From: Steroidobacterales bacterium
Lineage (GTDB): Bacteria; Pseudomonadota; Gammaproteobacteria; Steroidobacterales; Steroidobacteraceae
Reading direction: 5' to 3'
Assembly: GCA_038226325.1 (NCBI GenBank)
Contig: JBBRQO010000015.1
Span: forward strand, 31,278-95,277
Length of the DNA stretch: 64,000 nucleotides
Below are positions 8,316 through 61,795 of this stretch, one piece after another. Under the pieces are notes generated by a model. It worked only from the letters and a program-made list of their open reading frames with translations. It was not told the DNA's origin and searched no databases. The position numbers were made by a program, and so were the translations under genes. Positions within the stretch are counted from its first letter, which is position 1. Each line of letters starts with the position of its first letter.

Positions 8316-8498
8316 CTCTGCCTGCGTGCCCGCCATCGCGCCCGATCTCGCGACACACCATCAAAACGGCGCGGCCAAGGCGGCCGGCAATCGTACGCCT
8401 GATTCGCCGACAGCGATCCCGCGAGAGATATCCTCGCGCTTTGCGTACGATCCAACACTGTGTGCGACTTCCTTGAGTGCAATTCGAATGCATACCCC

Positions 8499-9188: not shown

Positions 9189-9381
9189 TAAAACGCATTG
9201 AATAGGCCAAACGGCAACTAGTTGAATCAGTGGTTTTGGCTGGAATGCGAGTCTCGCGATCTAACGCTTTAAAACCTAGTCGTTAGAACGAGAAGGTTTG
9301 TACACCGCCGATCGCATCACAATGGCGGGCGAGTGACATACTTGATGGGTGACGCGCGTGGAGCGAGCGTAACTTCAGGGG

Positions 9382-9960: not shown

Positions 9961-10114
9961 ATCATCTTCTCCAGAAGCGTGACATTGCGCTAAAGAAGCA
10001 GGAATTCTGGTGATGTAATATTAAAGTGGATAGGGATTCGCAGCGCTATGCTACGTAGGATATCGTGCCACATCGCACACTCTCTATCCGGCAGGCGCCG
10101 ATGACGTACGTCGG

Positions 10115-14815: not shown

Positions 14816-17074
14816 CTAAAAGTCCTTCCATTCCTCTTCCGCCGCCACGCCTCCGCCGCGAGTTGGGACGGAGACCACGGGAGCGGCAGGCAACTTTCTT
14901 TTGCCGCTCAAGGGCCGATTCGCGCCGCGGCGCTCGGTCGGTACATCGGCAATTACGGATATGCTCGGCCGCGTTGCCCTTCGTGGAGTCTCCGCATTCA
15001 CGACTTCTCTCACCCGAAAACGCGCGATTAGTCGCGACAAACTCGCCGCTTGCTCTGTGAGCGCCTGCGTGGCCGCCGAGGCTTGCTCCACCAGGGCGGC
15101 GTTCTGCTGGGTCACGTCATCCATCATCGTGATCGCGCGGTTGACTTGTTCGATGCCCGACGATTGTTCGCGGCTCGAGCTGGCTATCTCGGCCATGACG
15201 TCCGTCACTTTCGTCACTCCGGCGACGATCTGCGCCAGCACTTTTCCGGAATCGTCCACCAGTTTGCTGCCTTGTGTGACTTCGCGCACCGAGTCGTGAA
15301 TCAACACCTTGATTTCTTTGGCTGCTTGCGCACTGCGTGACGCCAGGTTCCTGACTTCCGAAGCGACCACTGCGAAGCCGCGTCCCTGTTCCCCGGCCCG
15401 GGCGGCCTCAACGGCCGCGTTGAGCGCCAGTAGATTGGTCTGAAATGCAATCTCGTCGATGACGCTGATGATGTTGGCGATGCGCTTCGAGGACGCGTTG
15501 ATTTCACTCATTGCCGCGACGGCTGCATTGACCACCACTCCGCCGCGCTCCGCCTGCTCTCGAGCCGCGGTGGCAAACTCGTTCGCCCGGGAGGCGTTGT
15601 CGGCATTGTTGCGTACGGTGGATGTCATCTCTTCCATCGAAGAAGCTGTCTGCTCCAGACTTGATGCCTGCTCTTCGGTGCGCTGACTCAGATCGGCGTT
15701 GCCTCGCGAAATCTCCTCCGCGCCACCGCGAACCTGGGCCGCCGCCCGCGTCATGCTGCGCACGACCTCTTCCATGCTCTCCAGCAAACGGTTCACGCCC
15801 CCGGCCAGGAATTTGAAGAATCCATCTTTGCCTTGCTCTGCGATTCGAACCGTCAAGTCGCCGTCGATGGCCTTGTCCACGATCGCCTGCACTTCCTCCT
15901 CCGTGGCCACTTCTTGGGTCCGGTCAAGCCACTGCACCACCGTCCCGACCCGCTGCCCCTCGTCTACTATCGGGTTGACTACGATTCGCAGCCTGGCATC
16001 ACCAATGGGCAAGTCTATCGCCCGGCCGGCAGCCAGGCCATCCAGCTGCAGACCCTGTAGAGAGGGCAGATTTTGAAACATCGCGAATGACCCGCCTATG
16101 AGCTGCTCTGGATCGAACAGCGCGACTTCCCTGCGGATCTCCAGCGCGTGACTATAAAACAATGTTCGGGCCGCATCGTTGACGTAGACAATTCTACCTT
16201 CCGCATCGCACAGCATCGCCCCTGCCGACACCTTGTCCAGGGCCATTCGAATGCGCGAATTCTCCGCCGCGGAGACAGTCTCCTTCTCCGTGCGTTCGCG
16301 CAGCGCTGATTGCATGCGCATCAGGCCTTCGAGTGTCCGCCCGATTTCATCTTTGGATGTCACCGTCACGTGGCTCGCATAGTTGCCCTTTTCTATTTCG
16401 CCCAGCACATCCGTCGCGGCGTTCAGGGGAATCCGGATGGCACGAGTCAACAAAAATGCCAGCAGGCATGCAGCCGCCACGGCAGAAAGCGAAAGGATGG
16501 TGAGCAGGCGCCGAGTATTTTGGTAGGATGCTTCGAGGTCGTTCGTACGCTCACGAATCTGCGCTTTTTTCTGATCGACCAATTTTTCCAAAGCATGCAT
16601 GACTGCGAGCTGTGCAGGTCGCGCCCGCTGCAGCAGGGTGGCCTTAGCCGCCTTGAGATCGCCGGCTTCCACTTGCCGCAGATATTCATCATCGAGGGGC
16701 GTCAAGTTGGCGCGCGCCTCCAACGCCACCTGTAACAGGGTCTTGGCTGCAGATGAATCGACGCTCGCTGTCAGCGTGTCGGCATATTCATTTCTTTTGT
16801 CAGCCAGGGCGCGCACCTGTTCGATCTCTTCCTGGATCTGCGCTTTATCTTCCATGATCAAGATATTGCTCGTGTGGCGCATGGACTCCGAAAGACTGGC
16901 GGCCCACGCATGGGCCATTTCAACCTTGTTGAACTCGGGACCGGTGAGTTCATTCACGGCGGCATTGAAGCCTGCCAAGCGGGTGAGGCTCAGGCCTACG
17001 GCAACGGCGAACACCGCGATCACGCCCGCGAAGGAGATGGCAAGCTTAGCGCCGACGGAATTCCGAAAACTCAT
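14816..17074 (-). CDS. methyl-accepting chemotaxis protein (two TM helices, periplasmic helical sensor, HAMP, PAS, signalling domain, C-terminal xWxxF pentapeptide)
   Basis: 752 aa. Highly conserved MCP hairpin tip ..[37 protein letters not shown]... Ends ..EEEWKDF, an xWxxF CheR/CheB tethering pentapeptide. Confidence 0.9.
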
Positions 17075-17138
17075 ATAGATCTCCAGGTACTCATTCTTCG
17101 ACGTCGCGCGCCACCACCTCCTGTGGTCGTCTGCCTAC

Positions 17139-17165
17139 TTATCGGATCTGCGGGCGGTTTCTTGA
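17139..17165 (-). promoter_or_regulatory. sigma-28 (FliA)-type promoter candidate for the MCP gene
   Basis: The reverse strand reads TCAA-GAAACCGCCCGCAGA-TCCGATAA. That is TCAA-N15-TCCGATAA against the consensus TAAA-N15-GCCGATAA, about 65 nt upstream of the MCP start. Confidence 0.45.
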
Positions 17166-17180
17166 GGCGCGGGACCGTGA

Positions 17181-17660
17181 CTACGCAGAGAGCAAGGTCA
17201 TTACGCCACCGCCATACTTCGGCAGCTGCAGCTGAAACTCTCGGCGGCCCCGTGGAGCCTGCAGCAGCGCCGCAGCCGGCCCCGGCAGCGAATGAGCAGC
17301 ATATAGTTGGTCCAGCCTCAAATGCGGCGACGCATCGTCCATCATGAGGCGGGTACAAATATTCATGATCTCGCGTACATTATCTTTCATGACATCCGTG
17401 AGTTGCCGCGTTTTTGCGGCATCCTTGACCACGGCCACGGGCAGCATGGAGAAGGCCGCGCCGAAGCTCACCGCGAGATTCGCATCTGCGCCGCACAAGG
17501 CGGCGGGATCGCCGTTATCGGACACAAAGACTCCGAACCAGGCGCCTCCGTTGAGCGTTTGATCGAATGGGCCCCCGGGCTTTACCACAAGCCCATCGAA
17601 AAGTGTTCCCAGAATCTGCAGTATTTTCTGGGTATCGGGGAGGGGACACGTCGTAGCCAT
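17181..17660 (-). CDS. CheX/CheC-like protein (putative CheY-P phosphatase)
   Basis: 159 aa, immediately downstream of cheY. Contains D-x3-E-x2-N (DNVREIMN), the CheC/CheX/FliY active-site motif. It is preceded by a ..AALCGADANLAVSFGAAFSML.. strand-helix pattern like CheX. The proline spacing after the motif is not canonical. Confidence 0.5.
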   Translation of the reverse strand: MATTCPLPDTQKILQILGTLFDGLVVKPGGPFDQTLNGGAWFGVFVSDNGDPAALCGADANLAVSFGAAFSMLPVAVVKDAAKTRQLTDVMKDNVREIMNICTRLMMDDASPHLRLDQLYAAHSLPGPAAALLQAPRGRREFQLQLPKYGGGVMTLLSA

Positions 17661-17689
17661 GGTATCTGCCTATCCAGAGCGCATACGAA

Positions 17690-18052
17690 TCAGTGTATGT
17701 GTTTGCTCAGCTGTGTTTTGAAAGTTTCCGGCGTGAACGGCTTCGAAATCAGAAATTGGGCGCCGGCGCCCAAAGCCTTCGCGATCATGTCCGGTGTCGC
17801 CTCGGTGGTGACGAAACCAAACGTAAGTTTGACTCCGCCGTTCACCAATGCCTCGAGTAATTGCAGCCCGGTCATATTGGGCATGTTCCAGTCGCACAGT
17901 ACGAGATCCGGCTTGCATGACTTGATGGCGGCCAACGCCTTGGCGCCATCGTCAGCTTCGGTGATATCGTGACCTTCGAATCCGGCAAGGCGCAGGGTCT
18001 TCTTGACGATCATCCGCATCGCGGCGGAATCATCGACGACCAGTATTTTCAT
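17690..18052 (-). CDS. cheY: chemotaxis response regulator CheY
   Basis: Internal ATG of ORF 17690..18112, preceded by GGAGGAGAG. MKILVVDDSAAMR...DLVLCDWNMPNMTG...FLISKPF carries the receiver acidic pocket, phospho-Asp and Lys. Confidence 0.9.
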   Translation of the reverse strand: MKILVVDDSAAMRMIVKKTLRLAGFEGHDITEADDGAKALAAIKSCKPDLVLCDWNMPNMTGLQLLEALVNGGVKLTFGFVTTEATPDMIAKALGAGAQFLISKPFTPETFKTQLSKHIH

Positions 18053-18121
18053 CTCTCCTCCTAGGGCCCTATGAGGTAGTCGGCGTGCGGCTGAAGTTCT
18101 TGAAATGAACAAGCAAAACCC

Positions 18122-19231
18122 TTAAGCCAGTGGAGGGTTGCGCTGCATCGCACCAGGCACTGCGCTCACGAGGCCCAGGATTTGCGCCGCGATGTGCTGC
18201 AGTGCATGCAGTGACTGCGCCGCTCCAATTTGCCAGGCGGCCCCCGGCATGCCCCAAACCACACTCGTATTTTCGTCCTGCGCAATAGTTGCAGCACCTG
18301 CCTCCTTCATTTCCTTCAAGCCTTCGGCGCCGTCGCGGCCCATGCCGGTGAGAATGACTCCGACGGAGTGACAGCCTGCGCTCTGGGCAACGGAGCGAAA
18401 CAGCACGTCAACGGACGGACGGTGGCGATTGACCAATGCTCCGTCGTTGAGGTGGCATCGATAACCGGCACCCTCTCGGAGCACCAGCAAGTGGCAATCG
18501 CCGGGAGCGATGTAGGCATGCCCCGCCAGAATGGGTTGCCCGTCCTGTGCTTCGCATACGATGAGCTCCGAGCAGGCGTTCATGCGGTTAGTAAACGCTG
18601 CGCTGAATGCCTTCGGAATATGCTGTGCAATGACAACGCCAGGTGTGTTCTGCGGTAAGTGCACGAGGATCTCCTTTATGGCTTCCGTGCCGCCGGTCGA
18701 GGCTCCTATGGCCACGATTCGACCCGAGGGCGCGGAATGCGTCACCGGCACGCGTTTTGGCAGCACTGCGTCAGCATTATGCAGCGGCTCTACGAGCGGC
18801 CAGGGATGGTCCCTGAGCGGTTGCACCCGAGCTTGGGCCGCCACCTTGACCTTGGCAATGATTTCCTGGGCGCAGTCCTTCATCCCTCGCGACACATTTA
18901 CTGTCGGTTTCGCCACGAAGTCGATGGCGCCAAGTGCGAGCGCGTCGAGCGCCGTCTCCGCACCCTGCTGCGTGAGCGATGAGCACATGACCACGGGCAT
19001 CGGCCGCAGACGCATGAGATTGCGCAAGAAGACAAGGCCGTCCATACGCGGCATCTCGACGTCGAGCGTGAGAACGTCGGGATTCAGAGCTTTGATCTTG
19101 TCTCGCGCTACATAGGGATCCGCCGCGGTTCCCACCACTTCGATTTGCGGGTCCGAACCGAGAATCTCGGACAGAATCTGCCGCATGACCGAGGAGTCAT
19201 CGACCACCAAAACGCGAATTTTCCTTTGCAT
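18122..19231 (-). CDS. cheB: protein-glutamate methylesterase/glutaminase CheB
   Basis: 369 aa with an N-terminal receiver (IRVLVVDDSSVMR..DVLTLDVEMPRMDG) and a C-terminal methylesterase domain (IVAIGASTGGTEA, GVILTGMGRDG). Confidence 0.9.
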   Translation of the reverse strand: MQRKIRVLVVDDSSVMRQILSEILGSDPQIEVVGTAADPYVARDKIKALNPDVLTLDVEMPRMDGLVFLRNLMRLRPMPVVMCSSLTQQGAETALDALALGAIDFVAKPTVNVSRGMKDCAQEIIAKVKVAAQARVQPLRDHPWPLVEPLHNADAVLPKRVPVTHSAPSGRIVAIGASTGGTEAIKEILVHLPQNTPGVVIAQHIPKAFSAAFTNRMNACSELIVCEAQDGQPILAGHAYIAPGDCHLLVLREGAGYRCHLNDGALVNRHRPSVDVLFRSVAQSAGCHSVGVILTGMGRDGAEGLKEMKEAGAATIAQDENTSVVWGMPGAAWQIGAAQSLHALQHIAAQILGLVSAVPGAMQRNPPLA

Positions 19232-19247
19232 TGTCTGCCGTTCCTGG

Positions 19248-19907
19248 TCAAGGCAATTGCATGACGTCGGCTGGCGGCGGCGCGCTGCCTGGCGTGTGTT
19301 GGCGTTCGTGTTCGAATACGGTGCGGTTGACGGTCGCGATCAGACGCTTGACGCGCAGCTTGCCGCTCGACGGGCTGTACAAAATCTTACGAGCGAAGCA
19401 GTCTCCGAGATCCTCCGCACTGATGACCAATCCCTCGCTCTTTAGGTAGTCACGCACGAATTGCGCGTTATGAGCGCCCACATCGAACGCCAGATCCAGT
19501 ATTTTGGCGCCCCCGACTACCTTGATTTCGAGATTCTCCCGCTGTCCACCCAACTCCAGAATGTCGCTGACCAATCGTTCCATGGCGACTTTACCGTAGC
19601 GGGTCGCGGAGCTGACTCGATCGGCGGTCCAGGCGCTCGCGCCGCCGGAGCGATCGAGCGGCAGCATGAAATGGTTCATGCCGCCGATCCCCAGCTTGCG
19701 TTCGCGCACACAGGCCGACACACAGGAGCCCAGGACCGTGAAAATCAATTCATCTTGCCGCGTGACGTAGTATTCACCTGGCAAAATTCTGGCAACCGAC
19801 ATGCTCAACTGAGGGTCCCAAGTCCGGCGTACATGCGCAAACTGAGGCAGCCCTTCCGGTATCTGCGGCGCGTCAGTCATTTTTCCCGACGCGCCGATCT
19901 GAGTCAC
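19248..19907 (-). CDS. cheD: chemoreceptor glutamine deamidase CheD
   Basis: 219 aa with ..ILPGEYYVTRQDELIFTVLGSCVSACVRE...GGMNHFMLP.., the CheD catalytic Cys/His blocks. Overlaps cheR by 4 nt. Confidence 0.9.
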   Translation of the reverse strand: MTQIGASGKMTDAPQIPEGLPQFAHVRRTWDPQLSMSVARILPGEYYVTRQDELIFTVLGSCVSACVRERKLGIGGMNHFMLPLDRSGGASAWTADRVSSATRYGKVAMERLVSDILELGGQRENLEIKVVGGAKILDLAFDVGAHNAQFVRDYLKSEGLVISAEDLGDCFARKILYSPSSGKLRVKRLIATVNRTVFEHERQHTPGSAPPPADVMQLP

Positions 19908-20743
19908 TCCACTCTCCGGTAGACGGTCCGGCCGACGAGCCGGTAGCGCTGGGTGACGTTGAATAGATTCTCCGAATGCCCAATGAACAGCCAGCCCCCC
20001 GGTTCTTGAATATCGGCCATGCGATCAAAGAGAGCACGTTGGGTGTCCCTGTCGAAGTAAATGACCACGTTACGGCAAAAAATCACGTCAAACGGGCCCT
20101 TCATCGGCCACGGCTCAAACAGGTTCAGTTGCCTAAACGTGATCAACGACTTGAGTTCATCGGCTGCCGCGCAGAAACCAGGCGTTCCGGCGACCGGGGG
20201 GAACCAGCGTCTCACCCTCGCCGCCGCGACGCTGCTGAGCCGGTCTGCGCCGTATATACCGGCGGCGGCGGTCGCCACCACCTTCGAGTCGATATCCGTG
20301 GCAAGAAGCTTGATATCCCAGCCAAGTAGGTGCGCCAGCGCCTCGCGCATGACCACCGCCATTGAGTACGCTTCTTCACCTGTGGAGCAACCCGCCGACC
20401 AAAGGCGCATGCGTCGCGTGCCGGATCGCTCCCGCTCCAACTGCGGCAAAACTTCCGTGGCGAGCTGTTCGAAGTGATATTTCTCCCGAAAAAAATATGT
20501 CAGATTGGTGGTGATTGCATTGATCAATTCCTGTGTTTCTTCCGCCGGCCTGTCTTCCACCAGCGCACAATACTCAGCGAACGATGTCAGCTTGAGCCTG
20601 CGCAGGCGCCGGGCAAGCCGTCCGTAGACGAGCTCACGCTTGCCATTGGACAAAGAAATTCCCGTATGTTCCCGCACCAGCGCGCGTAAACGGTCGAATT
20701 CGCGGTCGGTCAATTCGAATTCGTGGCTGGCGGGTGAAATCAT
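19904..20743 (-). CDS. cheR: chemotaxis protein methyltransferase CheR
   Basis: True start is M202 of the 480-aa ORF 19904..21346 (MISPASHEFELTDREFDRLRALVREHTGISL). It overlaps the upstream stop as ATGA. SAM-binding block RLWSAGCSTGEEAYS. Confidence 0.9.
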   Translation of the reverse strand: MISPASHEFELTDREFDRLRALVREHTGISLSNGKRELVYGRLARRLRRLKLTSFAEYCALVEDRPAEETQELINAITTNLTYFFREKYHFEQLATEVLPQLERERSGTRRMRLWSAGCSTGEEAYSMAVVMREALAHLLGWDIKLLATDIDSKVVATAAAGIYGADRLSSVAAARVRRWFPPVAGTPGFCAAADELKSLITFRQLNLFEPWPMKGPFDVIFCRNVVIYFDRDTQRALFDRMADIQEPGGWLFIGHSENLFNVTQRYRLVGRTVYRRVE

Positions 20744-21060
20744 TGCGCGAAGTCGGGATCCGGCAGGTGCAGCATCTCCGCCACACCGATTAGGACCGCC
20801 CTCTGGCGCAGAACGGCAGAGACGCCGCACCAAGTACAGGACACGCCACGCGCCGCACTCGTCCGCCACAGGCTCGTGAGCAACTGCAATATGGATGTAT
20901 CGATATCCTCCACATGGCTGCCGTCGATCGTCAGCGGGCGCCCGCTTGCGAGGCGCGTCGTCAGTGCACGGTGCAGGTCGGCGGCCTGCACGATGGTCAG
21001 TCGCGCGTCGAGCTCGACGCGCGATGACTGGGTCGCGCGCAGCGCTTTCCTTTTGGTCAT
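20740..21060 (-). CDS. STAS-domain protein (anti-sigma-antagonist fold; CheS-like position in the che operon)
   Basis: 106 aa. ..LTIDGSHVEDIDTSILQLLTSL..RGVSCTWCGVSAVLRQRAVLIGV.. fits the STAS pattern (lDls.v..iDssgl..L). Start and stop both overlap neighbours by 4 nt (cheW/STAS and STAS/cheR). Confidence 0.7.
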   Translation of the reverse strand: MTKRKALRATQSSRVELDARLTIVQAADLHRALTTRLASGRPLTIDGSHVEDIDTSILQLLTSLWRTSAARGVSCTWCGVSAVLRQRAVLIGVAEMLHLPDPDFAQ

Positions 21061-21605
21061 GCGGCCTCCGTGCCGGGCGACAGATCGTCTGCGAGGCTGT
21101 TGACGATGAGCCGATCAATGTCGAGCAGAATGAGCATCTTGTTTTCGACCGTCGCCAATCCCTTGACGAAGACAGTATCGACGCTGCCGCAGACATCGGG
21201 AGGCGGCTTGCAATCGGCCAAATTAACGTGATAAACATCAGAAACCGCATCGACAACCATGCCCACCGTACGTCCGTCATGCCCGCCGGCCACGCGCACG
21301 ACGATGACCACTGTCGTTGGACCGAATGCAATGGTCTCCAGGCCAAATCGTCGCCGCAGATCCAGAATGGGCACCACCGAACCTCGCAGGTTGATCACGC
21401 CCAGGACATAGTCCGGGGTACGGGGTATTCGCGTCACCTTGTCCCAGCCTTTGATTTCCTGCACGCGCAGAATGTCGACCCCATATTCCTCGCCATCGAG
21501 CATGAACGTCAGGTATTGCTCGCTGCTGCCCGCGGCGGACTTGTTGGCGCCGGCTGCCGGCGTCGCGTGTTTCGAGGTTGCGTTCGCCGTGGTTGCGTTG
21601 CTCAT
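21057..21605 (-). CDS. cheW: chemotaxis coupling protein CheW
   Basis: 182 aa with QYLTFMLDGEEYGVDILRVQEIKGWDKVTRIPRTPDYVLGVINLRGSVVPILDLRRRFG, a canonical CheW domain. Confidence 0.9.
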   Translation of the reverse strand: MSNATTANATSKHATPAAGANKSAAGSSEQYLTFMLDGEEYGVDILRVQEIKGWDKVTRIPRTPDYVLGVINLRGSVVPILDLRRRFGLETIAFGPTTVVIVVRVAGGHDGRTVGMVVDAVSDVYHVNLADCKPPPDVCGSVDTVFVKGLATVENKMLILLDIDRLIVNSLADDLSPGTEAA

Positions 21606-21673
21606 AATCTGAATTCCTCCGAAGCCTGCGGCCTTCCAACCTGCCTAATCCATGATGCCGACCGCGTCATACC

Positions 21674-23740
21674 TCAGGCTGCCTGCGCCGTCGCGGATCG
21701 GCGCAGTTGCTCGGCGCTTGAGTGGATCAGGTCCGGCACGTCAATGATGAGGGCTACCGTTCCATCGCCAAGAATCGTGGCGCCGGCAATGCCCGCAACG
21801 GACTTGAAATTCGCCTCCAGACTCTTGATGACGACTTGCTGCTGTGCAAGCAAATCGTCCACGAGAAGCCCGACGCGTTTACCATCCGCTTCGACAACAA
21901 CCAACAAGCCGTCTGCGGTGCGGTTGCTGTCCGGCTCGATGCCGAACTGATCACACAGTTTGACCACCGGCAAGTATTCCTCCCGCAACCGAAATACTTC
22001 AGCGTGCCCCACCCGCGTGTTCAAGTGTTCAGCACCGAGTTGGATGGTCTCCACGATCGATAGCAGCGATATGATGTAGGTTTCGTTGCCGATTCGGACC
22101 AGCTGTCCGTCGAGGATGGCAAGCGTCAGCGGCAGACGGATACGAATGGTGCTGCCGCGACCTTCGCTGCCAAATATCTGCACATGGCCGCCCAAGTCGA
22201 CTATGTTGCGGCGAACCACATCCATGCCGACGCCGCGACCGGAAACGTCGCTGATCTTATCGGCCGTGGAGAAACCCGGCATGAATATCAGATTGTGGAT
22301 CTGTTCCTCCGTCAGCTCTTGATCCACGGATATGAGACCGCGTTCGCGCGCCTTCTGCAGAATCTTCTCTTTGTTGAGGCCGGCGCCGTCGTCGCGCACT
22401 TCGATGATGATGTTGCCGCCCTCATGAAACGCAGCCAATTGCAGGGTGCCGCACTCCTGCTTGCCCGCCGCGAGACGCTTTTCAGGCGTTTCCAAACCGT
22501 GATCGAGAGCGTTACGAACCAGGTGCACGAGCGGATCGCTGATCTTCTCGAGGACGGTCTTATCCAGTTCGGTGCCTTCCCCGATCAGCTTGATTTCAAC
22601 TTTTTTTCCCAGCTTGCGGGACAGGTCATGCACGATGCGCGGAAAGCGGTTGAACGCAAAGCTAATCGGCAGCATACGTATCTGCATCACGCTTTCCTGC
22701 AGCTCGCGCGTGTTGCGCGCCAGCTGCGAGAGCGCCTGGCGCAGCCGATCCGGTTCATTGGGACCGCTTGCCTCGGCGAAGCCGCAAAGCATCGATTGGG
22801 TAATGAGCAGCTCGCCCACCAAATTGATGATGTTATCGAGTTTATCGGTGGCGACCCGAATTGAGCCCGACTCGGCATTCGCCTTGGGCGCGGCAGTCGC
22901 CGGCGCCGCGGCCCGCTCCGTACTCTGCGAAGCTGCGCTAAGTGAGGCTATTTTGTCAGCTTCGGGCGGCGACAAGTTTGGAGGGACGATGCCGGGATTG
23001 CCGGTGGCCGTGAACTCAAGCCGGCAACGGGGATCCACCCAGTCGAAAATGTCGTCGAGAGCGGCCCGCGGAATCTGCCCGGCGATTTCGAGATCCCAGG
23101 AAAGATAGCAGGACTGCGGGTCAAGCGCCTCGAGCGCGGGAAGTCGAGTAACGTCGGCGCGCGCGACCAGTGTTCCCAAACGCTCAAGTTCGCCGAACAT
23201 GCGGGTCGGCTCGTTGCGCAGACGCAGTAAGTCGCTGACCGGCTCGAAAGAGATTCGCCAGCCCTGCGTCTGCGCGGAGTTCATGGAGTTGGTCGGTGCG
23301 GCCACTTCCAATGCCGGCTTGGGCGCAACCGGCTCGCCGAGGATTTGCCGGATGTCCGCGTCCAGTCTCGCGATGCGGGCCCGATCCAACGGCTGTTCGG
23401 TTTCCGTCGCCATCATCATTTCGCGCATGCAGTCGCAGGACTGCAGCAGGGTCTGAATCGCCTCGGCGGTGATCGGCCGCGAGCGATTGCGCATTCCATC
23501 CAGCAGTGTCTCAACGCCGTGCGTAAAGGCGGCTACTTCCGCGAACCCAAAAGTCGCGGCGCCGCCCTTGATGGAATGAGCGGCACGGAAAATCGTGTTG
23601 ATACTCTCGTCGTCGGCTGACGCATCCAGAGTCAGGAGACCCGATTCCATCGCGTCCAAAGCCTCCCGGCACTCTTGGAAGAAGACTTTGAGGATTTCCA
23701 ACATTTCTCGATCAAGGCTCATGCTCGATTCCTTCGGCAC
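21674..23740 (-). CDS. cheA: chemotaxis histidine kinase CheA
   Basis: 688 aa, GTG start. Hpt block AHSIKGGAATFGF, dimerisation and HATPase blocks (HLVRNALDHG, DDGAGL, GRGVGMDVV), C-terminal CheW-like P5 domain. No receiver domain. Confidence 0.9.
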   Translation of the reverse strand: MPKESSMSLDREMLEILKVFFQECREALDAMESGLLTLDASADDESINTIFRAAHSIKGGAATFGFAEVAAFTHGVETLLDGMRNRSRPITAEAIQTLLQSCDCMREMMMATETEQPLDRARIARLDADIRQILGEPVAPKPALEVAAPTNSMNSAQTQGWRISFEPVSDLLRLRNEPTRMFGELERLGTLVARADVTRLPALEALDPQSCYLSWDLEIAGQIPRAALDDIFDWVDPRCRLEFTATGNPGIVPPNLSPPEADKIASLSAASQSTERAAAPATAAPKANAESGSIRVATDKLDNIINLVGELLITQSMLCGFAEASGPNEPDRLRQALSQLARNTRELQESVMQIRMLPISFAFNRFPRIVHDLSRKLGKKVEIKLIGEGTELDKTVLEKISDPLVHLVRNALDHGLETPEKRLAAGKQECGTLQLAAFHEGGNIIIEVRDDGAGLNKEKILQKARERGLISVDQELTEEQIHNLIFMPGFSTADKISDVSGRGVGMDVVRRNIVDLGGHVQIFGSEGRGSTIRIRLPLTLAILDGQLVRIGNETYIISLLSIVETIQLGAEHLNTRVGHAEVFRLREEYLPVVKLCDQFGIEPDSNRTADGLLVVVEADGKRVGLLVDDLLAQQQVVIKSLEANFKSVAGIAGATILGDGTVALIIDVPDLIHSSAEQLRRSATAQAA

Positions 23741-23789
23741 ATGATTCTGGCGTGTCCGTCATCCGCGCATCACGCGCTCTAGCGTAAGA

Positions 23790-23816
23790 TTATCGACCGA
23801 GCACGCGTAAACTTGA
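23790..23816 (-). promoter_or_regulatory. sigma-28 (FliA)-type promoter candidate for the cheA operon
   Basis: The reverse strand reads TCAAGTTT-ACGCGTGCTCG-GTCGATAA, i.e. TCAA-N15-GTCGATAA (7 of 8 in the -10 element), about 50 nt upstream of the cheA start codon. Confidence 0.5.
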
Positions 23817-23878
23817 CGGCCCCCGGGCCGCCATTTGCGGGGTTCGGCACGCCGCATCGGTAAGGCTACGCATTGGCG

Positions 23879-24781
23879 CTACAACTCGTGTACCGCGGCA
23901 TGGGCGGGCATGGTCATGGGGGCGCCGGTCAGCGCAGGCAGCAGCCCCTGCGCCGATTCCTGAGTCTGCAGTACGATTTCGGCCAGGGTGGCTGGGTCTA
24001 GCTTGAGCATGCGCAACGCCATGGAGGATATTGCCGGCCCGTCGCCCATCTCCGTGCTGCCTATTTCCGCGAGCACCGCCACGGTATTCGCAACGTGAAT
24101 GATCGCCACTTCGACAGGGTATTCTTGGGCCTCGGCGGGGCGGTGATGAAACTCGATGCATTCCTGCAACACACGAGGCAGCCCCCACTTCTGCGCGAGC
24201 CTCACCCCGACAACGCCGTGATCGAATCCCATCAGCTCGCGTTCGCAGGACCATAATCCGGGCTCGTCGGCCGCGTATATCGACATCAGCAGGGCTTGCC
24301 GCGCCAGTTCAGGCGCCCGGTTGAACAACACCAATTGTCCTATATCATGAAGGAGGCCGGCGACGAACAGCGAATCGGTGCGTCCATTCTCGCGCCGCGT
24401 GGCGATATGGCCCGCAGCCAAGGCGCATAGCACGCTTTGCCGCCAAAATGATTCCATCGACACCAAATCGTTGCCTATGCCGTCGAATGTTCGGATCGCC
24501 GTTATACCGACGGTCAGGTCGCGTACCTGGCTCACTCCGAGCACTGCAATCGCGCGCTGCACTGACGCTATTTTCCCATTCTGTCCGAAGAGGGGGCTGT
24601 TTGCGACGCGCAGCAATCGCGCGGTGAGCGCCGCGTCGTTGCAGATCTCGCGCCCAATGTCCGCAGCGGAGGAGGTAGGATCATTCACCATGCTGGCAAT
24701 TCGTAGTGCGACCTCGGGCAATGTCACCAGATCTTGGATGTTCGCAACCAAGGTTTCCGGAGTCCAATCGACTTTATTCAC
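23879..24781 (-). CDS. HDOD-domain protein
   Basis: I prefer the GTG at 24781 (GAGGGG 6 nt upstream) over the ORF-track start at 24955, which would overlap the upstream gene. Sequence ..LPEVALRIASMVNDPTSSAADIGREICNDAALTARLLRVANSPLFG...AIAVLG..., GLLHDIGQLVL, ..GFDHGVVGVRLAQKWGLP..ECIEFHH are the HDOD blocks. Confidence 0.8.
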   Translation of the reverse strand: MNKVDWTPETLVANIQDLVTLPEVALRIASMVNDPTSSAADIGREICNDAALTARLLRVANSPLFGQNGKIASVQRAIAVLGVSQVRDLTVGITAIRTFDGIGNDLVSMESFWRQSVLCALAAGHIATRRENGRTDSLFVAGLLHDIGQLVLFNRAPELARQALLMSIYAADEPGLWSCERELMGFDHGVVGVRLAQKWGLPRVLQECIEFHHRPAEAQEYPVEVAIIHVANTVAVLAEIGSTEMGDGPAISSMALRMLKLDPATLAEIVLQTQESAQGLLPALTGAPMTMPAHAAVHEL

Positions 24782-24845
24782 GCTGTACCCCTCAGGCTCA
24801 ACATTTGGATACCGCGAAGTACATTCCGCAGTATGGGCCGCTGAT

Positions 24846-25157
24846 TTAGGCTTTTTGCCGAGCCCTGAAGGCGCGCAACACACTGTTGAATTTTGCGGCC
24901 GTCTTCTGCATGTCGTCGACCACGCTATTGTGCGCGACGTCGTTGTGCTTCGCATCGATGCACTTCAACGTCGATTCCATGTCGTTCAAATACTGTTTGA
25001 CGGACTGCTGCGCCGCTAGAATGTCTTGTTCTGTGGCCGTCGCCGGCTCGGGGAAATCGGTGGGCGCGCTGGGTCCGCTACAGGAATCGGCCAAACAAGG
25101 GCAGGCGCACAGGCCGACAATCGTCGCTAATATAGAACTAGTAAAGGTTCTGCGCAT
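24846..25157 (-). CDS. small secreted, Cys-containing helical protein (hypothetical)
   Basis: 103 aa. N-terminal signal peptide [23 protein letters not shown], then a hydrophilic helical segment. Sits 65 nt upstream of the HDOD gene on the same strand, with a sigma-28-type promoter in front. Confidence 0.5.
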
Positions 25158-25204
25158 GGGAGCTCCGAAAGGCAGTTCGCGCGTACGTCATGCACGCATG
25201 CTGG

Positions 25205-25231
25205 GTATCGGCGCGAATGACTCGAGATTTA
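25205..25231 (-). promoter_or_regulatory. sigma-28 (FliA)-type promoter candidate for the small secreted protein / HDOD unit
   Basis: The reverse strand reads TAAA-TCTCGAGTCATTCGC-GCCGATAC, i.e. TAAA-N15-GCCGATAC (7 of 8 in the -10 element, perfect -35 core), about 50 nt upstream of the start at 25157. Confidence 0.5.
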
Positions 25232-25354
25232 GCCCCTGGGCACGCGGAAACGATTTTTGTGACATGCGTCACACAGGCGGCGCGCCCCGCCTGGGGGCGA
25301 ATATCCGATCGTGCGCGGATCGCGTTTTCCGTCGTCTCGCCGTGGGCGCCCTCG

Positions 25355-25381
25355 TAAAGTTTGCGGCCGCTCGGTCGACAT
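25355..25381 (+). promoter_or_regulatory. sigma-28 (FliA)-type promoter candidate for the second MCP
   Basis: TAAAGTTT-GCGGCCGCTCG-GTCGACAT, i.e. TAAA-N15-GTCGACAT. Nearly superimposable on the cheA promoter candidate (AAGTTT.CG.G.GCTCGGTCGA.A). Confidence 0.4.
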
Positions 25382-25470
25382 ATTGCGGGAGACGATTGCG
25401 CCGCCACGGAAGCGAGCATGAGGCGCGCCGTTGCTGGTCGGACCCCGCATGCCTTGGAGTGGCTATCACA

Positions 25471-28083
25471 ATGAATATCGCCGCACGGATGAAAATGGCC
25501 CAAAAACTCGCGATGATCGTGATCGTGCTTTTGTTGCCCCTGAGCTATGTCAGCGTCGAGTACGCAGCCGGCCTATCCGTGCAGATCAAGGAACATGAGT
25601 CTGCAGACAACGGGCTGCACTACTTCGAAGGCCTCAAGGAAGCCGGACGCGCCCTCGCCGCTCATGCCTCATTCACAGCGACGTTATTGGCCGGTGAAGC
25701 TAATACCTCCTACTTCGACAAAAAGATACAGGAGGCCGCTGCCAGATTGGACACCAGCATCGCCTTGCAAGATAGGTCCGAGGAAAAGTACGGCCAGGAA
25801 GGCTCTCCGGAGCGCCTGCTGTGGCAGGAAGTCAAGGCCGATTGGGCCAGCTTGGCGAAGAACTGGCCGAAGCTCACTCCCGAAGCCTCGGCGCAACGCC
25901 ACGACTCGTTATCCGCAAAGCTGACCAAACTGGTTCGTCTCATCGGGGAAACTCATCATCTGGATCGCGACGGTGACCTGCAGCAATATTATCTGCAGGA
26001 GCTGTCCGTACTAGAAATACCGCGTCTGTCCTTTGAATTCGGTGCACTGCGGGCAGCCGCGGCGCCCGTCGCAGCGCAAATGCTCTCAGTCACGCAGGAG
26101 CAAGAAGCCAAGATCAATGCGATTTCCGCGAACATTCGCTTCTTGATGGACAGTGCCCATTGGAAGCTTGATTCGCTGAGCGAATGGGCGACCCGAACCC
26201 GAGATGGCGACTTCGGCGCTCAAATGAAACAAGCCAACGATGCGTTGCATGCGAGCGAAGACGCGCTTATTGGATATCAGCGCTGGGTCGCCTCGAACAT
26301 CTTGACGCGTCGACCGGTCGGTGTGGCCTCACAGGAAGTCATGGAACAAGGCGCCTCTTTCGAGACCAAGCTGACGGCGCTACACGAGCTTCTGATGGAG
26401 CAGGTGAGCACTCGTTCCGCAAAGCGGCTCGCGGGCGAGCGATCCGAGCGCAATCTAGCGCTGACATTCGTAGCCGCCATGGTAATTGCTGCCATACTTC
26501 TGGCTGGTTACTTCACCCGCGGCTTGACACGCTCGATGCGGTGCGCGGTCTCGATTTTTGCGGCGATCGAGGCGGGTCACTACGAAAATGAAATCAAAGT
26601 GAACAGTGCCGACGAGGCCGGGCAAGTGCTTCGCTCACTGGATAAAATGCAAAACACCCTGAGGGTGCGCATCGAAGCGGACCGGCGGTTACTCGCGGAA
26701 AATACGCGCGTTCGTCAGGCGCTCGACAACGCCGGCACGATTGTATTGGTGGTGGACGAGAAACATAAAATCGTCTATGCCAACGAGACCGCCAAAACGA
26801 CCTTCGCACTGCTGCGGCGCGACATCCAACGCGACTTGCCGCAATTCTCCGATACGGCATTGGTCGGCGCCTCCATCGATATATTCAAACCCGTGCAATT
26901 TTTGGACAGAGGGGCGCTCGACCGATTGCGCGATTCTCAGAGCGAGATGCTTACTCTGGGCGGCCATTCCCTCGTGTTGAATGCCAGCCCCATCGTAGAC
27001 GCCACCGGCGCCCGCCTCGGCACGGTGCTGGAATGGCGAGATCGAACCAACGGCGTCGCAGTCGAGAACGAAGTGAAGTTCGTCGTCGCAGAAGCCTTAC
27101 GCGGCAATCTGCAGGCACGCCTGCCGGTCGAGGGTAAGAGCGGCTTTCATGCCAATCTCGCGGGTGGGCTGAATGAGCTGCTCGACAATCTTTCCACGGT
27201 AGTGAGTACCATCAAGGACGCGGTAGTCGCCGTTCGTTCCAGCGCCGATGATATATCAAAGGGCAACGCGGAATTATCGGGGCGCACAGAGGCCCAGTCT
27301 TCGGCTCTACAGGAGACCGGCGCCGCGCTCGAAGAATTGACCGCTACCGTTCGGCAGTCCGCGGTGAACGCGGCCCATGCCGACGAACTCGCGAGCTCCG
27401 CGCGCAATCGTGCCGAAAACGGCGGCGTGGTGGTTTCTTCGGCGATTACCGCCATGCATCAAATCAACGCCTCCAGTCACAAGATCGCTGACATCATCGG
27501 GGTCATTGACGAGATTGCTTTTCAGACCAATCTGCTGGCATTGAACGCGGCCGTGGAAGCGGCTCGCGCTGGCGAGCAAGGTCGCGGCTTTGCCGTCGTG
27601 GCCGCAGAGGTCCGCAGCCTTGCGGGCCGTTCCGCTCAGGCTGCCAAGGAGATCAAGACATTGATCAACGACAGCGTAGACAAAGTCAGCGAGGGCGCAA
27701 AGCTTGTCGATCAGTCCGGCGAAATGCTTCAGGAAATCGTCCTTGCGGCGCAAAGCGTCAACAAAATCGTGGCGGAAATCGCGGCTGCTACCCGCGAGCA
27801 AAGTGCCGGAATCGGCGAGATCAACAGCGCCATCGCAAAAATCGACGAGATGACCGGCAAGAATGCGGTTCTGGTCGATCACGACGCCGCAGTGGCGACC
27901 GCCCTTCTGACGCAGACCAATGCGCTGACCGAAGCCATGGATAAGTACCAGATTGGCGATACTGGTGCCGTCGCGTTTAGCAGCCGATCCGTTTCTACAG
28001 GGCCAAAGGCGGAATCTAGCAAAACCGAGCCGGTCATCCGCTCGCTCTCGGGGTCGCGTCGGCACACAGGGAGCCAGCGTTGA
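25471..28083 (+). CDS. methyl-accepting chemotaxis protein (large ~300-aa periplasmic sensor, HAMP, PAS, signalling domain; no pentapeptide)
   Basis: In-frame ATG ([24 protein letters not shown]) within ORF 24886..28083. The longer ORF would overlap the divergent gene and promoter region. Same conserved tip [37 protein letters not shown]. Ends ..RRHTGSQR. Confidence 0.9.
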
Positions 28084-28196
28084 GGTATATCCACACGATT
28101 TGCGCGTTTCTGCCGAAGCTTTATTGTGCTAGAGGGTCTTGGCGCGCGTGCATAACGCGCTGCGACTGAAAATCAACCCGCTCGGGGCATTATATT

Positions 28197-28559
28197 GTGT
28201 CGATCATTCCGGTTGCACCTACCTATAAGTCGGGACAACGATCTGTGGCGCCTACGAATTCCGAGGTCTCGAATGTCGCCCGGGCGGCAGCGCTCCCGTT
28301 CCTAGGCAAACTTGCCGCGGAGTCCCCGTGGCATCCATCAGTCAGGTTGTGGCGCGCCGCACGCAGATCAGCCCCGATGAAGCCTTCCTGACAGGATTGC
28401 TGCACGGTATTGGCCGCCTGTACATCATGGTTCGAGGGGATTCGCCGATGAAATGTCCGCAGCCGTCAGCGACCAGGCCGAGGCTGAGCGACATCGAAAA
28501 CGCAAGCGCGAGGTCTTGAAGATACCTACCCGCGCGTGCACGATGCATTGGGGTGCTGA
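28197..28559 (+). pseudogene. internally deleted relic copy of the HDOD gene at 29905..30825
   Basis: Retains four blocks in different frames. (1) VAPTYKS...ARAAALPFLGKLAAE versus TAPTYGK...ARGAALEFLRRLAAE. (2) ASISQVVARRTQISPDEAFLTGLLHGIGRLYIMVR versus ASISQVVARRTKVNPDEAFLSGLLHGIGRLYIMVR. (3) FADEMSAAVSDQ versus FAPEICEAVAEQ. (4) A terminal VHDALGC* versus LHNALGC*. Confidence 0.7.
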
Positions 28560-28583
28560 TTCGCCTGCCGACGACATCGCACG

Positions 28584-29132
28584 CTAGAAGAGTTCCACCT
28601 CACCCGCGCCGTTGGCGCTTGCCGGCCGTTTAGACACAGCCGTGCCCCTGTCGGTCGAAGACGCATCGCCGGCCAGGGTATCGAACAGAGCGCGTTCTTG
28701 CTCCATGCTGTGAATTTCGCGGATCCGCTGCCGCAGCTCGTTCCACTGCACGTCCGACTTCGGCGTGCTGTCGGCCGCCATGAACTGCGCAAGCTGGGTC
28801 AGGCTGGAACAGACATGAGTGAGGCATTGCACTAAGCGGTCGTGAAACTGGATGGCGGTAGCTGCCTTGCTCGATCGAATATGCATGTCATCGTGCAGGA
28901 GCATGAGATCCTGAAATACCCTCGCCGGCGAACCCGAGAAATCGAACAGGCAACGCGCAATTGTCTGGGTCGCAGTGCTCATCGAGTGTGCCGCCTCGAC
29001 AAGAGTCGCTGCGGGGGCGTCGGTCTCGTGCAGCGCGGACTCGATTTGCGCCGAGATGATGCCCAGCATCGACACGAGGTTTTCGGTCTGCTGAAGGGGC
29101 AAAGAGCTTGCTTCACTCGCTAATTTGTTCAT
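28584..29132 (-). CDS. hypothetical protein, candidate divergent CheZ-like CheY-P phosphatase
   Basis: 182 aa, 33 nt downstream of a single-domain CheY. KAATAIQFHDRLVQCLTHV lines up with E. coli CheZ KIMMAQDFQDLTGQVIKRM (catalytic D143 and Q147 in a D-x3-Q spacing). Predicted helical. Acidic/hydrophobic C-terminus ..GEVELF, like the CheY-binding CheZ tail ..DSLGF. Confidence 0.55.
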   Translation of the reverse strand: MNKLASEASSLPLQQTENLVSMLGIISAQIESALHETDAPAATLVEAAHSMSTATQTIARCLFDFSGSPARVFQDLMLLHDDMHIRSSKAATAIQFHDRLVQCLTHVCSSLTQLAQFMAADSTPKSDVQWNELRQRIREIHSMEQERALFDTLAGDASSTDRGTAVSKRPASANGAGEVELF

Positions 29133-29165
29133 ATCAGTTAATTCCCGATGCCAACGCGGCTTGGA

Positions 29166-29528
29166 TTACAAGACCCGATTGATCGTCGCTATCAGCTGTT
29201 GAGTATTGAACGGCTTCACCAGCCAGCCGGTCGCCCCGGCCTCCTTTCCCTGCAGCTTTTTGTCCTTAGCCGACTCGGTGGTAAGCACCAGCATTGGAAC
29301 GCATTTATAGGCCGGCAGTAAACGCAATTCGCGGATCAAGGTGAGGCCATCCATGCGCGGCATATTGATGTCGGTCAGTACAAGGTCCGCGCTATGGCCG
29401 CGGGCAAATTCCAATGCTTCGACGCCGTCGCTCGTCTGCTTGACTTCGTAGCCTTCGCCCGTGAGCGTCAATTGCATCATAAGACGAATCGACGGGGAAT
29501 CATCGACAGTGAGTATCAGTCTGGCCAT
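29166..29528 (-). CDS. single-domain CheY-like response regulator (second CheY)
   Basis: 120 aa: ILTVDDSPSIRLMM...DLVLTDINMPRMDGLTLIREL...PMLVLTTES...GATGWLVKPF. Confidence 0.9.
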   Translation of the reverse strand: MARLILTVDDSPSIRLMMQLTLTGEGYEVKQTSDGVEALEFARGHSADLVLTDINMPRMDGLTLIRELRLLPAYKCVPMLVLTTESAKDKKLQGKEAGATGWLVKPFNTQQLIATINRVL

Positions 29529-29777
29529 CTTCGCATCTCCGTCTCGAACGCCCTCGTCTCCGGCAACCGGTCATTGAGAGTAACCTTCTCAGGCCTCATC
29601 TCAATGTTGCACATTTCCAGTTTCAAGCGTTGGGTTTGCTTCACATAGTCAGCACATGGAAATCCCGTCAAATTGCTGCCCATCCATGCGCCTTGCACGC
29701 CAAAGATGCACGCGTGAGATATGTGACGAGTATCACCAAAATCGCCAGCGAGACCTGCGAAGCACAGGCATTAGGGC

Positions 29778-29804
29778 TAAAGCTTAACCACAACTCGCCG
29801 TCAC
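29778..29804 (+). promoter_or_regulatory. weak sigma-28-like promoter candidate for the second HDOD gene
   Basis: CTAAAGCTT-AACCACAACTC-GCCGTCAC, i.e. TAAA-N15-GCCGTCAC. Only 5 of 8 in the -10 element, but correct spacing and a good -35. About 100 nt upstream of the ATG at 29905. Confidence 0.25.
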
Positions 29805-29904
29805 CTCTAGATAACCTATGAAGCGCTAACCTCGATTTGGCCTCAACACATTACAAGCATGCCTGTTTGAGAGTCGCCACAATTGTCTTCGGAGAGACCT
29901 GAGT

Positions 29905-30825
29905 ATGGCAAACGCCTTTACGGCCCCTACCTACGGCAAGGCGCCTGCTGCCTGCGCCGATAGCGTGGCAACGGCCGCGGCGCGGGGTGCGGCGCTTGAG
30001 TTCTTACGCCGGCTAGCAGCGGAGCTATCCGCGGGCACGGTCGATTTGCCGTGTTTTCCGAAAGTAGTGATTCAAATTCGCAAGGCTTTGGCCGACCCCG
30101 CCACCACTCCGGAACAAACCGTCACCATGGTCGGCGCGGAACCGCGCTTAGCCGCCCGCCTGCTTCAAACCGCCAATTCCACTGCGTTCAATCTGTCAGG
30201 TAAGCCGCTGGCGGATCTGCGTTCTGCAATCACGCGATTGGGCTATCGGATGGTGCAGAGCGCAGCCATGGCTTTTGCCATCCAACAAATGAAGGACGAA
30301 CATTCGCTACGCAGTATCGCGACGCCCATGAACGCCTTGTGGCAGGAATGCATCGCCGTTGCCTCAATCAGCCAGGTCGTCGCCCGACGAACCAAGGTAA
30401 ATCCAGACGAGGCCTTCTTGAGCGGTCTATTGCACGGCATCGGACGCCTGTACATCATGGTCCGAGCGGTGCTCCAATCACCCCCCATAGGCAGCGAGGA
30501 ATCTTTTCGGGATTTGGTTTCCGGTTGGCATGCGTCGATCGGCAAGGCGGTTCTGGAAAACTGGAGCTTTGCGCCGGAGATATGTGAGGCAGTGGCGGAG
30601 CAAGGCAATCACGACCGGCAACACAAAGGGGACGCGGATCTATCGGATGTCTTAATTGCGAGTAAGTTGCTGGCAGAAGCATTGAACACCGCCTCGCCGC
30701 AAATCGTCGACTATGACGCCGTCAGCTCGCTCCAACGCATCGGACTCAATGCGGACAACTGCACCCCGATCCTAAAAATCGCCCGGCATCAAATAGCCTC
30801 ACTCCACAACGCACTAGGCTGTTGA
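29905..30825 (+). CDS. HDOD-domain protein
   Basis: 306 aa. LPCFPKVVIQIRKALADPATTPEQTVTMVGAEPRLAARLLQTANSTAFN...AITRLG, GLLHGIGRLYIM, ..WHASIGKAVLENWSFAPEICEAVAEQ are HDOD blocks. Confidence 0.85.
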   Translation: MANAFTAPTYGKAPAACADSVATAAARGAALEFLRRLAAELSAGTVDLPCFPKVVIQIRKALADPATTPEQTVTMVGAEPRLAARLLQTANSTAFNLSGKPLADLRSAITRLGYRMVQSAAMAFAIQQMKDEHSLRSIATPMNALWQECIAVASISQVVARRTKVNPDEAFLSGLLHGIGRLYIMVRAVLQSPPIGSEESFRDLVSGWHASIGKAVLENWSFAPEICEAVAEQGNHDRQHKGDADLSDVLIASKLLAEALNTASPQIVDYDAVSSLQRIGLNADNCTPILKIARHQIASLHNALGC

Positions 30826-61794: not shown

Positions 61795-61795
61795 G

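Follow-up and report, generated by a model that had tools for sequence, protein, structure and literature searches.

Gene content and conservation of the locus

We analyzed a 64-kb stretch of DNA from a Steroidobacterales bacterium (assembly GCA_038226325.1, contig JBBRQO010000015.1, positions 31,278–95,277; denoted the window), which contains a chemosensory locus with two stand-alone HDOD proteins, a STAS protein and two small unannotated proteins of 159 and 182 residues (denoted X159 and Z). All 14 genes named in a previous annotation made from the DNA letters (denoted the sequence-only reading) were recovered with their coordinates in the open reading frame (ORF) listing. Pfam confirmed two methyl-accepting chemotaxis proteins (MCPs), CheA, CheW, CheR, CheD, CheB, two CheYs, the STAS protein and both HDOD proteins, and thereby the classical cheA-cheW-cheR-cheD-cheB-cheY core with two receptors described in that reading.

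Ten genes lie on the minus strand between positions 14816 and 24781. In order of increasing coordinates they encode the receptor MCP1 (14816–17074; 4HB_MCP, HAMP, PAS and MCPsignal domains, 9e-56), X159 (17181–17660), the single-domain response regulator CheY1 (17690–18052; Response_reg, 9e-25), the methylesterase CheB (18122–19231; REC and CheB_methylest domains), the deamidase CheD (19248–19907), the methyltransferase CheR (19904–20743), a STAS-only protein of the anti-sigma-antagonist or CheS type (20740–21060; STAS_2, 4e-13; STAS, 3e-9), CheW (21057–21605), CheA (21674–23740; Hpt, dimerisation, HATPase_c and CheW-like domains) and the stand-alone HDOD protein HDOD1 (23879–24781; 2e-57). 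They are followed by the second receptor MCP2 on the plus strand (∼25471–28083; HAMP, PAS and MCPsignal domains), an HDOD2-like fragment of ∼59 codons on the same strand (28328–28504; 56 bits with phmmer), Z (28584–29132) and the response regulator CheY2 (29166–29528), both on the minus strand, and the second stand-alone HDOD protein, HDOD2, on the plus strand (29905–30825; 4e-35). The three 4-nt overlaps reported across cheW-STAS-cheR-cheD were confirmed on the coding strand (ATGA for cheW/STAS, ATGA for STAS/cheR and GTGA for cheR/cheD, where the cheR stop codon overlaps the cheD start). The STAS gene thus overlaps its neighbour at each end, which agrees with the proposed translational coupling to cheW and cheR. 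Because of the alignment with E. coli CheA, the true start of cheA is probably the ATG located 18 nt downstream of the listed GTG, near position 23722.

To place the locus among its relatives, a genome scan seeded with a narrow X159 alignment yielded 47 related loci, a sample biased towards Steroidobacteraceae, which were annotated using the window proteins as queries (individual loci carry L numbers below). Close homologues of the window proteins are found in Steroidobacteraceae and in unclassified gammaproteobacterial metagenome-assembled genomes. The consensus operon reads HDOD-cheY-cheA-cheW-STAS-Z-cheR-cheD-cheB-cheY-X-mcp, with an upstream-type cheY before cheA and an E. coli-like cheY between cheB and X. 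The arrangement is not a product of chance, since the gene set recurs in 47 loci of different genomes. With STAS, HDOD1, X159 and Z-family genes among its members, this set is conserved as a whole across ∼45 genomes. The sequence-only reading had raised the possibility of chance adjacency; instead, the STAS, HDOD and small-protein genes are co-conserved with che genes, and because they travel together in dozens of relatives they are testable candidates for pathway components. No canonical CheZ or CheX was found in any of the related loci.

Compared with the consensus, the locus in the window is rearranged. The cheY gene that normally precedes cheA is gone, MCP2 is inserted between HDOD1 and the cheY2 unit, and an HDOD2-cheY2-Z module is parted from HDOD1 by MCP2 and the HDOD2-like fragment, which is probably a remnant of the rearrangement. 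The same module is present in L024 and L026, where it lies next to HDOD1-cheY2-cheA. CheY2 is 64% identical to the cheA-preceding CheY of L003. The separate cheY2-Z unit seen in the sequence-only reading does exist in the window, but it is a lineage-specific relocation: both gene types lie within the main operon in most relatives and, given the loss of the upstream cheY and the displaced module, the unit consists of relocated normal operon members. Plasmid CP099603 of the cultured Comamonadaceae strain OTU4NAUVB1 carries a cluster (L055) of the order mcp-cheY1-X159-(Z-like)-cheY2-cheA-cheW-cheR-cheD-cheB-EAL, in which both small genes are annotated as hypothetical.

The X159 and Z protein families

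X159 gave no match in Pfam or NCBIfam even at E≤10, and profiles of its homologues retrieved no CheX or CheC chain from the Protein Data Bank (PDB) sequences; none of the three alignments used for such PDB searches, those of X159 and Z together, yielded a relevant match. Likewise, none of 50 diverse X159 relatives matched the CheX and CheC models (PF13690 and PF04509) at E≤1. Profile–profile comparison by hhalign with five CheX sequences recovered from PDB alignments yielded E = 0.095, which is not above the level of cross controls (E = 0.09 to 0.5 when X159 was compared with CheZ, and Z with CheX). In the best local segment of this comparison the E-x2-N motifs are in register, at an E value equal to that of the controls, and a relaxed alignment runs collinearly from one end to the other, which we regard as a lead and not as evidence; in global mode, the second half of X159 was placed on the first half of CheX with a score of 0. 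The assignment of the 159-residue protein as CheX-like is accordingly not supported at the family level, and the non-significant scores likewise prevent placing Z in the CheZ family.

X159 instead defines a large, conserved, unannotated family that is linked to CheY. An exhaustive profile search collected 1319 clusters at 50% identity (E≤1e-3). Among 129 diverse representatives, Glu97 and Gly152 are conserved in 99%, Asn100 in 97%, Tyr149 in 96% and Asn94 in 92%. The D-x3-E-x2-N motif noted in the sequence-only reading is present as D93-x3-E97-x2-N100, but Asp93 is variable in the family, and the conserved positions are Asn94, Glu97 and Asn100. Compared with the motif D/S-x3-E-x2-N-x22-P of CheC, CheX and FliY, Glu97 and Asn100 are retained, the first position is variable and prolines occur at +12 and +26 from Asn100, not at +23. 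X159 resembles these phosphatases in its size (159 versus ∼155 residues), in the nearly identical position of E-x2-N and in the location of its gene beside cheY; it differs from them in that the residue four positions before the Glu is not conserved and in its extra invariant Asn94. In 44 of the 45 informative loci the X159 gene is preceded by one for a CheY (median gap 28 nt), and one protein, P0309, consists of a receiver domain fused to X159. X159 is a candidate CheY-P phosphatase or partner of CheY1.

Larger members of the family were also observed. Ten proteins of 516–944 residues (P0242, P0243, P0248, P0249, P0255, P0257, P0258, P0282, P0297 and P0310) contain two to four tandem X159 domains preceded by an N-terminal region of ∼125–235 residues; the seven that were scanned gave no meaningful Pfam match.

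Z, too, had no match in Pfam or NCBIfam at E≤10, and a profile of its homologues retrieved no CheZ chain from the PDB sequences. The hhalign comparison gave E = 0.4 with E. coli CheZ and E = 0.15, the level of the cross controls, with a CheZ profile from five genera (Escherichia, Cupriavidus, Ralstonia, Pantoea and Photobacterium). Membership of the CheZ family (PF04344) is therefore not supported, yet the CheZ-like motif on which the sequence-only reading had remarked is present as D98-x3-Q102 and is invariant in the family. The family comprises two subtypes, and the pattern Q-x2-D-R-x2-Q occurs in all 37 members, including that of a Thiotrichaceae locus, with His97 varying between H, Q and Y, and nearly all of them carry [VI]-E-L-F at or near the C-terminus. 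Three further Z-like proteins outside this count, one of 153 residues in the Comamonadaceae plasmid cluster and one each in L049 and L050, retain Q-x2-D-x3-Q and a terminal VELF or IDLF, with Arg99 and His97 varying. The AlphaFold model of Z (pLDDT 74) consists of a helical hairpin, with D-x3-Q on the second long helix (residues 69–119), and a disordered tail.

Collectively, Z is a conserved, unannotated, CheY-linked family, its gene lying between STAS and cheR in most relatives and directly after cheY2 in the subclade of the window. Like CheZ, it combines an invariant D-x3-Q, located on a long helix in the predicted hairpin, with a flexible linker and a short, conserved hydrophobic motif at the C-terminus; in the window its gene also comes immediately after a cheY. 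Unlike CheZ, it has a shorter hairpin and terminates in VELF instead of DDLLxSLGF, and this VELF is common to CheD. On the basis of their motifs and gene positions, the X159 and Z families are strong candidates for CheY-P phosphatases. Of the two CheY–phosphatase pairs of different families proposed in the sequence-only reading, what stands is that each small protein tracks one CheY paralogue and carries an invariant motif of phosphatase type; the CheX and CheZ assignments do not. The novelty of two phosphatase types occurring together had also been overstated, since Vibrio vulnificus has both CheX and CheZ (PMC12887009).

The terminal motif of Z recurs in CheD. In 33 of 42 related loci CheD ends in ...SGSVELF or has one further residue after VELF, and the same applies to the Comamonadaceae cluster and to the canonical stage-4 cluster of Cupriavidus metallidurans. 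CheDs with this ending occur among L003–L050, in L055 (14779–15387) and in L051; the CheD of the window and those of its subclade lack it. No che protein of the related loci other than Z and CheD ends in VELF. Since the motif is common to these two proteins, it probably serves to dock them on a core component. The CheY2-type regulator is a candidate for this partner because cheD and the upstream cheY of F7-class systems are lost together in enterics (PMC7184735). A mimic of the CheR-binding pentapeptide is unlikely, since the receptors of the clusters carry a proper xWxxF sequence and VELF contains no Trp.

HDOD proteins, STAS protein and system class

Both HDOD proteins scored far above the Pfam cut-off for PF08668 (194 bits for HDOD1 and 122 bits for HDOD2; cut-off 22.9). 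They had been described as lying at both flanks of the locus; the domain assignments hold, but HDOD1 is located inside it, between cheA and MCP2. To our knowledge, no biochemical role has been established for HDOD domains. The HD, H and HH motifs are retained in HDOD1, with the first metal-ligand His replaced by Gln. HDOD2, which shares 26% identity with HDOD1, carries HG where HDOD1 has HD and is oriented divergently from cheY2. The closest structure to HDOD1 is that of a Geobacter HDOD protein with a di-iron site (PDB 3HC1), and PDB 3LJX, deposited as 'MmoQ response regulator', was among its matches. The orthologue in L003 occupies the same position and is 67% identical; the HDOD1 homologues listed are close orthologues only (at least 67% identity). 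In the Steroidobacteraceae clade HDOD1 is conserved as the opening gene of the operon; in 27 loci it stands first and points in the same direction as the che genes, and 24 of 31 full-length HDOD genes are directly followed by a co-directional gene of the CheY2 type. One independent and phylogenetically remote adjacency of HDOD and chemotaxis genes was found on chromosome II of Leptospira interrogans (listed as plasmid; L056, 8498–9861), where an isolated cheD is followed after 6 nt by an HDOD gene.

A connection of HDOD proteins to motility has precedents. Stand-alone HDOD proteins are linked to swimming in Pseudomonas (PMC11004494, PMC11813219), SadB serves as an adaptor for proteolysis without binding a ligand (PMC12075610), and HDOD is listed among the effector domains attached to receiver domains (PMC4395418). 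The proteins described here resemble REC-HDOD regulators and stand-alone motility regulators such as GsmR, MmoQ, PSPTO_4229 and SadB in that HDOD is linked to a receiver or to motility; they differ in that HDOD and receiver are encoded separately, by two genes of a che operon. We did not find any description of HDOD as a component of a che cluster in the searchable literature library.

The class of the system was derived from its receptor, CheA and gene order, using the class features given by Ortega et al. 2020 (PMC7184735). Residues 423–704 of MCP1 align with residues 250–531 of E. coli Tar without a gap over 282 residues (56% identity), and MCP1 is therefore a receptor of the 36-heptad (36H) class. 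Its C-terminal sequence, EEWKDF, is similar to the pentapeptide by which CheR and CheB are tethered; one receptor per related locus has an ending of this xWxxF type (E-W-K-D-F), and MCP2 is without a terminal pentapeptide. For CheA, the indications of F7 membership are indirect: it shares 43% identity with its E. coli counterpart along the entire length, and similar scores were obtained against the CheAs from Cupriavidus and from the Comamonadaceae plasmid. Because of the 36-heptad receptor and the similarity of CheA to that of E. coli, the system is, as judged by sequence, F7-like, of the E. coli type, with CheD kept. Between CheY1 and E. coli CheY the identity is 41%, and the motif DWNMPNM is common to both. 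In their overall layout, MCP1 and MCP2 have a periplasmic or N-terminal sensor and HAMP, followed by a cytoplasmic PAS domain before the 36H signalling domain; this layout mixes the Tar-like and Aer2-like forms that represent successive evolutionary stages in the scheme of Ortega et al. (PMC7184735).

Among F7 clusters, the ancestral ones contain genes for anti-sigma-factor antagonists (STAS) together with cheD and an upstream cheY; in the beta-proteobacterial stages 3–4, a second cheY with cheZ is gained after cheB (PMC7184735). The F7 layout cheY-cheA-cheW-(mcp)-cheR-cheD-cheB and the ancestral anti-sigma antagonist gene are seen in the 47-locus consensus; the window itself is without the upstream cheY. 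By analogy, the operon fits an intermediate F7 form with X159 in the position of cheZ. Like the stage 3–4 clusters of Cupriavidus and Comamonas testosteroni, it combines a 36H receptor with periplasmic sensor, an E. coli-like CheA, a retained CheD, one cheY before cheA, a second cheY after cheB and then a small gene. Unlike them, it has X159 in place of cheZ after the second cheY, is headed by an HDOD gene and, from cheW to cheR, carries STAS and Z at the place that a receptor takes in those clusters; moreover, its receptor keeps a cytoplasmic PAS domain and neither flhDC nor motAB is attached.

The STAS protein scored 49.7 bits with STAS_2 (PF13466; cut-off 29.2) and 37.2 bits with STAS (PF01740; cut-off 22.6), and most related loci possess its gene. 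When plasmids were searched with the window protein, no match was obtained. A STAS protein in a che cluster is less novel than the sequence-only reading had it, given the anti-sigma-factor antagonists of ancestral F7 clusters (PMC7184735) and CheS of Sinorhizobium meliloti. CheS, a STAS protein of Sinorhizobium and Agrobacterium che operons, binds CheA and helps it to discriminate between two CheYs (PMC12654446). When the STAS proteins are compared by description, those operons resemble the present one in encoding a STAS-only protein, two CheYs and CheD; they differ in belonging to an alpha-proteobacterial class, in the location of CheS at the 5' end of the operon, and in terminating the signal by a phosphate sink, without phosphatase candidates or HDOD.

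The genes flanking the locus are unremarkable and encode a Na+/H+ exchanger, a DEAD-box helicase, RecQ, an amidohydrolase, TonB receptors and metabolic proteins. Scans for promoters and terminators returned fewer sites than in shuffled sequence, and no RNA family was detected anywhere in the window with Rfam. Between HDOD1 and MCP2, an ORF of 103 codons on the minus strand (24846–25157) encodes an N-terminal segment that resembles a signal peptide or lipobox (…IVGLCAC…) and has no Pfam match. A truncated ORF of 155 residues for an IS66-family transposase (59429–59896, plus strand), which matches only the middle of the profile, is followed by a pair of ECF sigma factor and FecR genes (61228–62917). 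The G+C content falls to 0.52, versus ∼0.60, at 8001–10000, a segment spanning genes for a CDP-alcohol phosphatidyltransferase and a lipocalin.

A model of the pathway and its alternatives

As far as can be judged from its sequence, the locus encodes a chemosensory system that belongs to a Steroidobacteraceae-like gammaproteobacterium and is broadly of the E. coli kind. In the model that we propose, the receptors, CheA and CheW would form an array that is adapted by CheR, CheB and CheD, and CheA would phosphorylate the two CheY paralogues. CheY1 would be the motor-type output, and its signal would be ended by X159, which occupies the position of cheZ in beta-proteobacterial and enteric clusters and may use its invariant Glu/Asn pair on a helix in the manner of CheC, CheX and FliY. 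CheY2 would represent the ancestral F7-type regulator, with Z ending its signal: Z, a predicted helical hairpin that would dimerise, may present the Asp/Gln pair of D-x3-Q as CheZ and the HisKA_3 kinases do, and it would be docked by its flexible tail ending in VELF. The STAS protein may act on CheA like Sinorhizobium CheS or, alternatively, as a partner-switching module. Finally, the stand-alone HDOD proteins, usually encoded just upstream of the CheY2-type gene, would be the partner or output of CheY2, so that HDOD and CheY2 might form a split equivalent of REC-HDOD response regulators.

We estimate the probability of this overall picture, namely two CheY branches, each with its own new type of phosphatase, and an HDOD partner for the upstream-type CheY, at roughly 55%. 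Its most specific version is doubtful as a whole: here the HDOD proteins would be the outputs of CheY2 (a split REC-HDOD and the old F7 output), X159 and Z would be new CheY-P phosphatase families, one per CheY, and the VELF of both Z and F7-type CheD would dock the same CheY, CheY2. Several observations weigh against the overall picture. The hhalign scores of X159 with CheX and of Z with CheZ remain at the level of the controls. The AlphaFold model of X159, built from a shallow alignment (27 sequences at ≥70% identity), is unusable (pLDDT 41.5), and a Foldseek search with the Z model retrieved generic coiled coils only. VELF is not specific to Z and may dock something other than CheY, and its presence in CheD weakens a simple analogy to the C-terminal peptide of CheZ. 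HDOD1 is absent from more distant clades that keep X159 and Z. There are also no flagellar genes in the window, nor any pilus genes.

Some of these points suit other explanations. If the conserved polar residues of X159 and Z serve binding and not catalysis, both proteins could be adaptors, like Sinorhizobium CheS or CheT, that adjust phosphotransfer or adaptation by binding to CheA, CheR, CheD or the receptor array. The location of Z between STAS and cheR in the consensus operon, three genes from cheY2, would agree with such a role, as would a docking site on a core component shared by Z and CheD through VELF and the lack of detectable homology of X159 or Z to any phosphatase; CheS is itself a precedent for a small accessory protein acting through CheA (PMC12654446). 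The invariant residues, however, are the pairs of two known CheY-P phosphatase chemistries, E/N and D/Q (i, i+4), X159 adjoins a CheY gene in nearly every locus and is fused to a receiver in P0309, Z directly follows cheY2 in the window subclade, and no other phosphatase is present in these loci. We therefore consider purely non-catalytic adaptors somewhat improbable. The HDOD genes, and HDOD2 in particular, could be neighbours without a role in the pathway that are kept by linkage in one family, which would explain why HDOD1 is missing upstream of cheY2/cheA in the clades of 46–52% identity and in Pseudomonadales loci, why HDOD2 occurs in a handful of loci only and why the best plasmid homologue, in Methylophaga, has no che context. 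This we regard as unlikely, since HDOD1 heads the operon in 27 loci despite differences of up to ∼40% among their X159 proteins, the HDOD-cheY2 adjacency occurs twice each in L024 and L026, and the cheD-HDOD pair of the spirochaete is independent.

It is also conceivable that the system does not steer flagella and belongs to a pathway of alternative function (for example c-di-GMP, biofilm or gene expression), with HDOD and STAS as outputs and the CheYs as internal relays. Besides the missing flagellar genes, this would be in keeping with the ancestral F7 clusters, whose function is unknown and which carry anti-sigma antagonists and a Ser phosphatase (PMC7184735), with a GGDEF-EAL gene near the cluster in L003 and the EAL gene in the Comamonadaceae plasmid cluster, and with the frequent attachment of HDOD to c-di-GMP enzymes, some plasmid matches being annotated as diguanylate cyclases. 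On the other hand, MCP1 resembles E. coli Tar in its periplasmic 4HB sensor, 36H domain and terminal pentapeptide, CheY1 has the DWNMPNM motif and its 41% identity with E. coli CheY, and the cheB-cheY-X layout mirrors the cheB-cheY-cheZ layout of motor-controlling F7 systems, which makes a purely non-flagellar pathway quite unlikely.

Taken together, the cluster is not a textbook one, yet there are precedents for its STAS component and for the logic of two CheYs. Its interest lies in the two widespread unannotated families and the reproducible pairing of HDOD with cheY. In chemosensory systems without CheZ, CheC or CheX, it is often unclear how the signal is switched off, and X159 and Z provide concrete candidates for this step; two families of 'hypothetical proteins' could thus be named as chemotaxis components. 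The role of the upstream CheY of F7 systems is a question raised by Ortega et al. 2020 (PMC7184735), for which the HDOD pairing gives a candidate. If true, HDOD as the output of CheY2 would supply the long-unknown 'old' output of F7 systems, and a defined partner, CheY2, together with a pathway would make the biochemical role of HDOD testable.

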